A DNA stretch of 62,328 nt, counting the filler, from Stramenopiles sp. TOSAG23-6 (Eukaryota), in NCBI GenBank assembly GCA_900128565.1. It is 33 parts of 33 records of this genome, joined end to end, with 100 filler letters (N's around TTAATTAATTAA, not from the genome) between each part and the next. Parts side by side here need not be neighbours in the genome. Positions count along the whole stretch, not along the records: positions 41,740 to 43,524 come from LT638596.1; 32 more parts are not named here. One strand, given 5' to 3'. Positions 41,798-43,123 of this stretch are shown here, in pieces; position 1 is the stretch's first letter; the number at the start of each line of letters is the position of its first letter. A program made the translations under genes and the position numbers. Under the pieces are notes generated by a model that was not told the origin of the DNA, did no database searches, and saw nothing but the letters and a program-made list of their open reading frames with translations.

Positions 41798-43123
41798 GTC
41801 AATTGTCAGCAACGACAACTTCACAGATTGAAGTAGATTCATTATATGACGGACTTGACTTTTCACTTCAAATCACTCGTGCTAAATTTGAACAGATGAA
41901 CATGGCACTTTTTAAAAAGACAATGGATCCAGTAAAACGTGTGTTAGATGATGCAAAATGTACAACAAAAGATGTTGATGAAGTTGTTCTTGTTGGTGGT
42001 TCGACACGTATTCCAAAAGTACAAGCCATGTTACAGGAGTTTTTTGGAGGAAAACCTCCGAATAAAAGTATTAATCCTGATGAAGCTGTAGCATGGGGTG
42101 CGACGATTCAAGCAGCAATTCTTGATCAAACTATTGGTGAAGCTGGTGAAGATATTTTATTACTTGATGTTACGCCTCTCTCATTAGGGCTCGAAACCGC
42201 AGGTGGTGTAATGTCCATTTTAATTCCACGTAATACTACTGTGCCTACTAAAAAAACACAAATCTTTACAACTCATGAAGATAATCAAAAAAGTATGCTG
42301 ATCCAAGTGTTTGAAGGAGAACGTCCAATGACACGTATGAATAATCATGTTTGTTTTATTCTTTTTTTTTTTTCAATTTTTTATCTAAATATTTTTTTTT
42401 CATAGTAAATTTTGTACCTAACAATTTTTTTTAGATTTTTTTTCAAATATGTTTCCAAAATACATCTAGGTCGTTTTAAACTGGAAGATATGCCACAAAT
42501 GCCACGTGGAGTACCTAAAGTTGAAGTTGTATATGATATTGATGCTAATGGTATTTTAAATGTCTCGGCTAGAGAAATGTATGTTTTATTTTTTTTCAAA
42601 TTCGAAATTTTTTTATAGTAAATTTTATACCTAACAAATTTTAGTTTTTTTTTTTTGAAATATTCTTTCACAATATATTAGTACTGGAAGTTTTAATAAA
42701 ATCCAAATTAAAAATGATGGATCTAGACTCAGTAAAGAAGAAGTTGAACGACTTGTTATGGAGGCGGAACGTTTCAAAGCAGATGATGATAAAGCTGTAG
42801 GTAGTACAATTGTAATGGAAACTTTAAAACGGTATATATATAATATGCGAAATGTCGCAACTGATCCAAAAATGAAGTCAATTCTTAGTACAGATGATCT
42901 TACAAAATTGAGTGAAAATGCCAAAATACATTTAGAATGGCTTAAAGAACATCATACAGAGGGCAAAGCAGTGATTACAGAAAAACTTTCAGAAGTAAAA
43001 GCTTATTTAGCTCCGATACGTTCTAAAATTACTGCAGCATTAAAAAAAAAGAAGAAAGAGAATACAGAAGATTCAGGAGATGTTGTACCACCTCCGGAGC
43101 CTCCAGTAAATGATGCAGAGTAA
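41798..43123 (+). CDS. HSP70: HSP70-family chaperone, 3' part (GT-AT introns 42349-42465, 42579-42678)
   Basis: [55 protein letters not shown]. Confidence 0.97.
42349..42465 (+). mobile_element. Introner-like intron, GT...AT
   Basis: aat cat|GTTTGTTTT...CCAAAATACAT|cta ggt restores MTRMNNHLGRF, collinear with MTKDNNLLGKF. Confidence 0.92.
42579..42678 (+). mobile_element. Introner-like intron, GT...AT
   Basis: gaa at|GTATGTTTT...CAATATAT|t agt restores VSAREISTG, collinear with VSAVDKSTG. Confidence 0.92.

Follow-up and report, generated by a model that had tools for sequence, protein, structure and literature searches.

We analyzed a stretch of 62,328 nucleotides (nt; hereafter, the window) from the genome assembly of the marine protist Stramenopiles sp. 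TOSAG23-6 (GCA_900128565.1), with a focus on the introns of a gene for HSP70. About 33 unrelated contigs, each 1777–1810 base pairs (bp) long, make up the window; they are ordered by size and separated by linkers of the form N44-TTAATTAATTAA-N44 (e.g., 1811–1910 and 41640–41739). Because the window consists of joined contigs, pieces that stand side by side are not neighbours in the genome and their gene order is artificial. The content of guanine and cytosine is 23–39%. The HSP70 piece is a single contig (41740–43524), which also carries a 92-nt tandem repeat downstream of the HSP70 stop codon (43350–43524; 1.9 copies, 85% match). Most introns of this organism belong to one near-identical family, whose members start with GT and are cut after AT instead of AG.

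Two such introns interrupt the HSP70 gene. The first is the focal intron of this study, and the features of the locus are as follows.

42349–42465, plus strand: focal HSP70 intron of 117 nt, GT...AT, with a 3-nt CAT border ambiguity; placed by an RNA contig and by gap-free homology.
42414–42422, plus strand: GTACCTAAC, the putative branch-site motif, recognized by its conservation in the family; the branch A would be at 42421.
42432–42434, plus strand: bypassed internal TAG, its G 13 nt past the likely branch A; its use would retain 31 nt.
42444–42465, plus strand: 3' block CAAATATGTTTCCAAAATACAT, whose final AT is the last dinucleotide of the intron, as seen in the 14-nt logo of 26 introns and the family alignment.
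42468–42469, plus strand: unused exonic AG, 4 nt beyond the intron end; the RNA contig reads through it from 42463.
42579–42678, plus strand: second HSP70 intron, GT...AT, with a 2-nt AT ambiguity; placed by gap-free homology alignment.

Public sequencing runs were matched by words of the HSP70 contig; two small DNA runs contain fractions of 0.94 and 0.84 of these words, and a poly(A) seawater metatranscriptome (X3) contains 0.45. The RNA runs X3, X6, and X7 and the DNA run X4 were then aligned to the HSP70 contig alone. Record 2 of X3 (298 nt, depth 4.2) matches positions 42192–42345 and continues at 42463–42576, with 0 mismatches and no gap over 268 nt. Since CAT stands at both borders, the joint 42345/42463 equals 42348/42466, that is, exon...CAT/GT...CAT/CTAGG, with the GT at 42349 and the AT ending at 42465. 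The record skips both the internal TAG and the exonic AG, which confirms, directly for this one intron, that the bypass of the TAG is real. At the second intron, record 2 of X3 ends at 42576 while record 3 of X3 and record 23 of X6 begin at 42677, which fits a joint with the 2-nt AT ambiguity. An internal TAG of this intron ends at 42644, and the inferred joint runs through an exonic TAG (42679–42681). The matches in X6 and X7 are mainly short ones of 90–95% identity to conserved parts of HSP70 and probably stem from other organisms.

The HSP70 model with three exons and GT...AT junctions (372 residues) aligns to the homologue P0186 with 0 gaps and 61% identity, and neither junction is gapped against three further homologues. 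The label of the best-aligning HSP70 among the four compared begins with INCI. When the internal TAGs are used instead, the models run into a stop after 14 residues (first intron) or 11 residues (second intron). A homologue search with the HSP70 exon returned no near-identical full-length protein, with a best match of 74%, and hence offered no independent check of the junctions.

Homology constrains the introns of a second gene, ZnT9, whose contig (11440–13241) is extremely intron-dense: eight exons of 56–182 nt and seven family introns are packed into 1.7 kilobases (kb). Homologues came from a search of a representative library with exon 12470–12643, and 13 of the 150 listed were aligned. The ZnT9 model joins the eight exons at the seven family introns, is open throughout (263 codons), and has 0 gap characters within 8 columns of six of the seven junctions in all 13 aligned homologues. 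The seventh junction falls within a variable stretch, and here the model runs collinear with P0244, the closest aligned homologue (66% identity). Taking HSP70 and ZnT9 together, 8 of 9 junctions are gap-free against homologues and the ninth is collinear with the closest one. These alignments therefore fix nine intron lengths exactly to the base, not merely modulo 3, and 4 of these nine introns contain bypassed AGs. The ZnT9 introns of particular interest are listed below.

12832–12933, plus strand: ZnT9 intron, GT...AT; 31 nt would be retained if splicing used its internal TAG, which ends at 12902; gap-free against 13 homologues.
11858–11963, plus strand: ZnT9 intron with two bypassed TAGs, which end at 11936 and 11946 (13 and 23 nt past the A of the motif); junction gap-free.
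12330–12463, plus strand: ZnT9 intron that excludes the AT-AC register; the exon ends GAT CCT (Asp-Pro) and the distance from motif to end is 64 nt.
12097–12248, plus strand: ZnT9 exception intron, whose end by homology is ...CACAATATTT (TT), or which is AC...AT under a shift of 2 nt; motif ACTAAT.

The second TAG of intron 11858–11963 lies 17 nt before the end and thus cannot be excused as too near the branch. At the junction of intron 12330–12463, all 13 homologues have the Pro and 12 of them the Asp; moving the border by −2 would put His in the place of Pro. The only in-frame ends of intron 12097–12248 are 12242, 12245, and 12248, and 12248 alone is gapless against the 13 homologues.

The bypass of a TAG between branch motif and acceptor had been proposed in a first-pass annotation, and its coordinates were borne out. 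This applies to the focal intron (motif at 42414–42422, TAG at 42432–42434, end at 42465, with 31 nt left over if the TAG were used), to the ZnT9 intron ending at 12933 (31 extra nt), and to a further intron at 41116–41225, in which a CAG ending at 41220 lies 5 nt before the AT end and out of frame. It had further proposed to compare junctions at the internal AG with those at the terminal AT, and the one RNA contig joins at the AT end.

We assembled the family by reading all contexts of CCTAAC in the window and then fixing the intron ends by family consensus and reading frame. With at most one mismatch allowed, the motif GTACCTAAC is found 65 times where 5.47 matches are expected, and 100 shuffles gave no more than 14 (palindromic and duplicated contigs included); 41 exact copies occur in the 56 kb of non-redundant window. 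The sequence TACCTAAC is present 46 times among the 56,294 bases that are non-redundant. Contig 1911–3718 is its own reverse complement (1808 of 1808 positions) and has the appearance of a chimera formed during amplification or assembly; each of its introns was entered once in our counts. Contigs 58675–60451 and 60552–62328 are identical (1777 of 1777 positions) and constitute a redundant assembly entry. Family introns were found in the genes for HSP70 and ZnT9, in a coiled-coil gene, in a C2-domain gene, and in others; a homologue search with the C2-domain exon (19390–20334) returned nothing.

The layout of the family can be written as (Y)AT/GTAYGTTTT, a variable U-rich spacer, TTTTTCGTACGAAATTTTGTACCTAACAA, a second variable spacer that may hold a TAG, and (GAAATATTTTT)CCAAAATACAT/, where slashes mark the borders and Y stands for C or T. 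More briefly, its 3' part reads GTACCTAAC...U-run...CAAAATAYAT/. The alignment is modular: the donor, the branch motif, and the 3' block are conserved, and the spacers between them vary. All 26 complete introns start with GT and have A at −2; 24 end in AT and 2 in AG. At the donor, +3 is A in 19 of the 26, +4 is T in 18 or C in 7, +5 is G in 24, and +6 is T in 26. The exon before it ends with Y at −3 (17), A at −2 (19), and T at −1 (24).

Among the 34 non-redundant 3' halves that bear the motif, 32 end in AT (CAT in 25 and TAT in 7) and 2 in CAG. Nine further ends were located by the donor motif or by reading: AT in six (3917, 4478, 9845, 11801, 20322, and 35681), AG in two (11541 and 57122), and the exception at 12248. 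The total of 43 3' ends thus comprises 38 AT, 4 AG, and 1 other. The AG-ended members have their G exactly where the others have T, which suggests that this position tolerates either letter. The following family introns illustrate the variation at the 3' end.

41116–41225, plus strand: family intron with a CAG 5 nt before its AT end; placed only by the continuity of the frame (36 and 45 open codons).
4149–4258, plus strand: family intron that closes with ...CCAAAATACAG, its AG standing in the place of the AT of most members; sequence and frames.
2329–2481, plus strand: family intron with two internal copies of the motif and the end ...TCAAAATACAG (AG); in the palindromic contig.
56992–57122, plus strand: family intron with the simplest end ...AAACAG (AG), other in-frame ends being possible; frame continuity, with 64 and 64 open codons.

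Several structural peculiarities were observed in individual members. A 56-nt intron at 4423–4478 has GGTACAA in the place of CCTAAC and ends ...GGTTCAGAT; a CAG lies 2 nt before its in-frame AT end, and an AT...AG register is equally compatible with the mRNA. Four introns (2329–2481, 57255–57417, 58013–58190, and 41347–41542) contain two copies of the ...CGTACGAAATTTTGTACCTAAC... block, and these look like internal tandem duplications or nested insertions. Upstream of the branch-like motif (e.g., at 42399–42422), the consensus CGTACGAAATTTTGTAC is nearly palindromic (GTACGAAA/TTTTGTAC) and holds a second donor-like GTACGA; the variants CATAGTAAAT and CATAGGAAAT of this near-palindrome break its pairing.

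The copy number of the family may be high in the genome. Word depth over the intron blocks is 10^3–10^4 times that of the flanking exons in both DNA (X4) and RNA (X3), which points to a very large family, the depth being summed over organisms. A scan of metagenomes with a gapped family pattern gave 0 matches; a scan with a 19-mer gave at least 116 loci, none of which carries the family among the matches listed, and the single match to the regular expression is a chance one. Many contigs break off within a family intron (e.g., 5615–5626, 11275–11339, 17144–17189, 20774–20838, 41612–41639, 49275–49312, 52903–52936, and 58550–58574), and the assembly is probably fragmented because assemblers stop at high-copy repeats such as these. 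Telomere-like blocks of (TTAGGG)2–3 were also seen within contigs (11702–11713, 13048–13059, 20100–20111, 35271–35288, 40096–40107, 40192–40203, 46707–46718, and 58231–58242); at least two lie inside family introns (11620–11801 and 13030–13150), and one adjoins an N8 gap. Intron density is uneven. The contig with the gene for the E2 enzyme of pyruvate dehydrogenase contains an intron-free open reading frame over 1.3 kb (38462–39751, minus strand), and its product is 97% identical to a EukProt record labelled GSMAST32, which we take to be a MAST-3 marine stramenopile assembly. A larvacean and then a diplonemid had been considered as the host, and this match led us to discard both. A protein atlas offered no usable taxonomy for the E2 enzyme.

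We then considered what determines the position of the 3' cut. A TAG with its G 10–13 nt past the putative branch A is present in 11 of the 34 non-redundant 3' halves and an AAG in one more, so the YAG that the first-pass annotation had included in the family consensus belongs to a minority of copies. Counting any AG between motif and end, 14 of the 34 contain one. If the internal AGs were used, 27, 17, 31, 31, 34, 32, 31, 31, 31, or 5 nt would remain in the transcript; on its shorter side, the reading frame would then stay open for 9–39 codons, compared with 36–200 with the AT junction. In 5 of the 34 introns, an exonic AG lies unused within 6 nt of the inferred end. Between motif and end, 16 AGs were counted where 2000 shuffles gave 21.6, and 7.7% of the shuffles had 16 or fewer, which is no clear depletion. 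The earlier claim that the acceptor is not chosen by scanning for AG is upheld by the 38 AT among 43 ends and by the RNA contig, which passes an upstream TAG as well as an exonic AG. The AGs are bypassed because the introns of this organism end in AU.

In place of AG scanning, it had been suggested that a conserved terminal block, pairing of the two intron ends, or distance defines the acceptor, and these three fared differently. The distance from the first C of CCTAAC to the last base of the intron ranges from 38 to 64 nt (mode 47–49), matching the 32–58 nt (mostly 41–43) measured before from the position after the motif. It still spans 42–64 nt among the nine independently supported introns, and a fixed distance is not supported. 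The conserved block remains: the last 14 nt read TTT[CT]CA[AC]AATA[CT]AT, with 23–26 of the 26 complete introns in agreement at most positions. Divergent members keep only the last ~10 nt of it, after the U-run (CA-A/C-AATAYAT, e.g., CACAATAYAT), and lose the GAAATATTTTT part. The end pairing is a weak determinant. An inverted repeat of about 6 bp, in the register (AU)GUAU/AUAC(AU), forms 5.08 of 6 pairs on average, the duplex has an energy of −4.52 kcal/mol against −2.23 for shuffled ends, and 18 of 26 minimum-energy folds pair the junctions. Yet the focal HSP70 intron lacks this pairing (−2.0 kcal/mol) although it is spliced, and only 1 of the 7 donors with C at +4 has the compensating G at −6. 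These results indicate that the cut site tracks the terminal motif, and neither a fixed distance nor AG.

The explanation that we favour, and that we hold to be rather probable, is that these are U2-type introns of one transposon-like introner family whose 3' end is cut by the host spliceosome after YAU instead of YAG. The donor GUAYGU is an ordinary one, able to pair with U1 and U6. GUACCUAAC, close to the yeast UACUAAC, would serve as the branch site, with a U-rich tract downstream; TACCTAAC or a close variant stands 38–64 nt upstream of the end and is followed by such a tract. The cut would be placed by the local motif (U-run)-CA-A/C-AAUA-Y-A-U at that distance past the branch motif, rather than by the first AG or by a fixed distance. 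With −2 always A, and −1 U in about nine tenths and G in about one tenth of the copies, the same machinery appears to take both letters. The UAG found 10–13 nt past the branch A in about one third of the copies lies inside the U-tract, lacks the motif, and would be ignored, as would AGs close to the start of the following exon. A diverged U2AF-like or second-step factor probably reads the 3' motif, and the family presumably originated from a transposon. The most likely mechanism is thus U2-type splicing in which the 3' site consists of the U-run and CAAAAUAYAU and the last base is read less strictly or in a changed way. The terminal AG that characterizes U2-type introns is present at only 4 of the 43 ends.

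The register of the borders is the first element of this explanation that can be questioned. GT-AG and AT-AC are the two known compatible combinations of first and last bases, and in AT-AC introns the A at +1 pairs with the C at −1. If the true borders were 2 nt to the left, most introns would be AT-AC (AT-AT for those ending in TAT), and those with AG ends would be GT-AG. An exon-final AT stands before 18 of 26 introns, and therefore mRNA alone cannot separate GT-AT from AT-AC. Moreover, an exon-final AT precedes 20 of 28 AT-ended complete introns and 0 of 3 AG-ended ones (hand-calculated hypergeometric p = 0.037). This pattern would also agree with a repeat at the borders or with linked intron ends, and AT-AC stays a minority view. 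The shift would put AT-AT borders on the 7 of 34 introns that end in TAT, finds no AT before the GT in 8 of 26 introns, and would replace the Pro of intron 12330–12463 that all 13 homologues keep. The GT register yields a near-perfect GTAYGT (24–26 of 26 at +1, +2, +5, and +6), whereas the shifted ATGTAT fits no known donor. The conserved Pro and the GTAYGT consensus therefore favour GT-AT throughout, and we regard the shifted borders as improbable. Less improbable, if still unlikely, is a branch point downstream of the TAG, for example an A in UUGAAAU about 20 nt before the end, which would make GTACCTAAC a relic of the mobile element and leave nothing bypassed. A branch-to-acceptor distance of about 44 nt is on the long side, the branch role of CCTAAC is itself a prediction from sequence, and stretches containing an A lie 15–25 nt upstream of the end in all copies. 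However, GAAAT is lost in divergent members that retain TACCTAAC or a close variant (CCTAAT, ACTAAT, TACTTAAC, and TAATTAAC), and CTAAC fits the general branch consensus CURAY. A downstream branch would also leave unchanged both the AT end and the skipping of exonic AGs 3–4 nt downstream.

Two other possibilities concern the machinery itself. Pairing of the intron ends could set both cuts without normal recognition of the 3' site, as proposed for the nonconventional introns of euglenids and hemistasiid diplonemids. The terminal inverted repeat described above agrees with such a process, with its mean of 5.08 of 6 pairs, 18 of 26 folds, and a duplex of −4.5 against −2.2 kcal/mol in shuffled ends. 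But that helix is short and AU-rich, it is absent from the spliced focal intron, and compensation is seen in 1 of 7 cases. The donor, branch motif, and U-tract all look spliceosomal, and the conserved borders (GT and YAT) differ from those of nonconventional introns as characterized in PMC6221363 and PMC12621601; we judge this process very unlikely. Most remote of all is an assignment to the minor U12-type introns, in a rare GT-AT subtype. CCTAAC loosely resembles the U12 branch consensus, TCCTTAAC, and one intron starts with GTATCT (4149). On the other hand, the donors are GTAYGT-like in 25 of 26 introns and the U12 consensus [AG]TATCCTT occurs in 0 of 26, the motif lies 38–64 nt from the end compared with 10–15 nt for U12-type introns, and a long U-tract is present. 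The TAG at the U12-like distance is exactly the one that is left unused. GT-AT is nonetheless documented as a rare U12-type border, with seven cases in human and mouse (PMC1557818).

Besides the exon-final AT, several considerations weigh against splicing after YAU as we have set it out. The exact base of most of the 43 ends was set by family consensus and frame, which is partly circular, and continuity of the frame tests length modulo 3 only. The intron set was gathered through the motif, and therefore other kinds of intron may be under-counted. A single RNA contig (depth 4.2) spans a junction, and contigs may conceal minor isoforms. Conservation of the block could in part reflect recent spread rather than function. 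By homology, intron 12097–12248 ends in TT or starts with AC, either as a true exception or through a base error in the assembly. Lastly, a search of the 62-kb window with Rfam at gathering thresholds found nothing, and so no small nuclear RNA, although a window of that size says little.

Introns of comparable character occur in other lineages. Henriet et al. reportedly described the non-canonical introns of Fritillariidae (larvacean tunicates) in 2019. According to Soo et al. 2026 (PMC13326754), about 95% of Fritillaria introns break the GT/AG rule; their last three bases are YAY, a triplet that often stands before the donor too, and AT is more frequent than any other 3' end (44% in F. pellucida and 34% in F. 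borealis). The same paper describes these introns as processed by a U2-type spliceosome, with duplicated U2AF subunits and a uridine-rich tract, and many of them as young. The family described here shares YAY as the last three bases (CAT in 25 and TAT in 7 of 34, the other 2 having CAG), often also before the donor, as well as the U-rich tract. It differs in its donor, which is GT in 26 of 26 introns, whereas the Fritillaria donor is non-canonical (AG/AC and AG/AT being the main classes) and its termini are diverse. It also differs in that nearly all introns belong to a single sequence family, in which a branch-like motif is strong. To judge by the label of the nearest named protein, the host is a protist and not a tunicate.

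A second comparison is with introners, the transposon-derived families of near-identical introns of Micromonas, Aureococcus, dinoflagellates, and others, which have GY/AG splice sites and varied arrangements of target-site duplications and terminal inverted repeats in the available part of PMC9860276. In contrast to the GY/AG borders given there, the family here ends in AT in about nine tenths of copies. Like introners, it occurs as one family in many unrelated genes, is AT-rich relative to exons, and has an aquatic host. It may also resemble them in a high copy number, short terminal inverted repeats, and a short direct border repeat. For the latter, the last 2 nt of exon and intron match in 18 of 26 cases against 16.6 for shuffled pairs, so that a target-site duplication is not separable from sequence preference. 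The marine protist Amoebophrya reportedly has invasive repeated introner elements that are non-GT/AG and lack conserved borders, their ends being joined by inverted repeats. Unlike those introns, the present ones have conserved borders and a conserved branch motif, and their end pairing is weak.

GT-AT introns of animals include a U2-type intron of DGCR2 that is conserved between human and mouse, and seven U12-type cases are listed in PMC1557818. Each of these is an isolated exception in a set of hundreds of thousands of introns, unlike the family here, in which AT is the rule (38 of 43 ends). The nonconventional introns of euglenids and diplonemids are described, in PMC6221363 and PMC12621601, as having no conserved borders, no donor complementary to U1, and stable structures that join the ends. 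They resemble the present case in so far as a protist lineage has most of its introns off GT-AG, a mobile-element origin is suspected, and the ends are complementary. They differ from it in that the introns here have a GT donor, a conserved YAT end, and a weak helix only. Our literature searches on GT-AT introns, introners, and stramenopiles or MAST returned no report of this family. The main texts of three MAST genome papers (PMC5778133, PMC8163842, and PMC12614181) contain nothing on splice sites, and their supplements may hold intron statistics.

If our reading is correct, it has a practical side: gene finders built on GT-AG would disrupt almost all genes in genomes of this kind. In Table 1 of PMC5778133, MAST-3 assemblies of 19–21 megabases (Mb) have 2694–3289 genes and MAST-4 assemblies of 28–33 Mb have 4652–8537 genes; the paper does not discuss splice sites. 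AT-ended introns may partly explain why few gene models come from the assemblies of uncultured relatives.

Few signals of eukaryotic genes are as constant as the terminal AG, and both the reason for this constancy and the choice of the 3' site are debated. An organism in which about nine tenths of introns combine a textbook donor, branch motif, and U-tract with an AU end constitutes a natural experiment that isolates 3'-site choice. Because the 5' end is fully canonical here, the change at the 3' end could be studied in isolation, if the reading is true. Such introns would put to the test what reads the base at −1: U2AF1-like proteins, the contact between G(+1) and the last base in the catalytic core, or a flanking motif. 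The family adds a further case of mobile elements creating introns with non-AG ends. It is conceivable, at slightly less than an even chance in our estimate, that a free-living marine stramenopile lineage shifted its 3' signal from YAG to YAU throughout the genome alongside the explosive spread of one mobile intron family, which would bring along a donor, a branch site, and an extended 3' motif of its own. Under such a genome-wide shift, a diverged 3'-site factor or proofreading at the second step may read the site, and the shift may have arisen independently of that in Fritillaria. If true, this would represent a second independent origin of a phenomenon so far known at scale only in Fritillaria.

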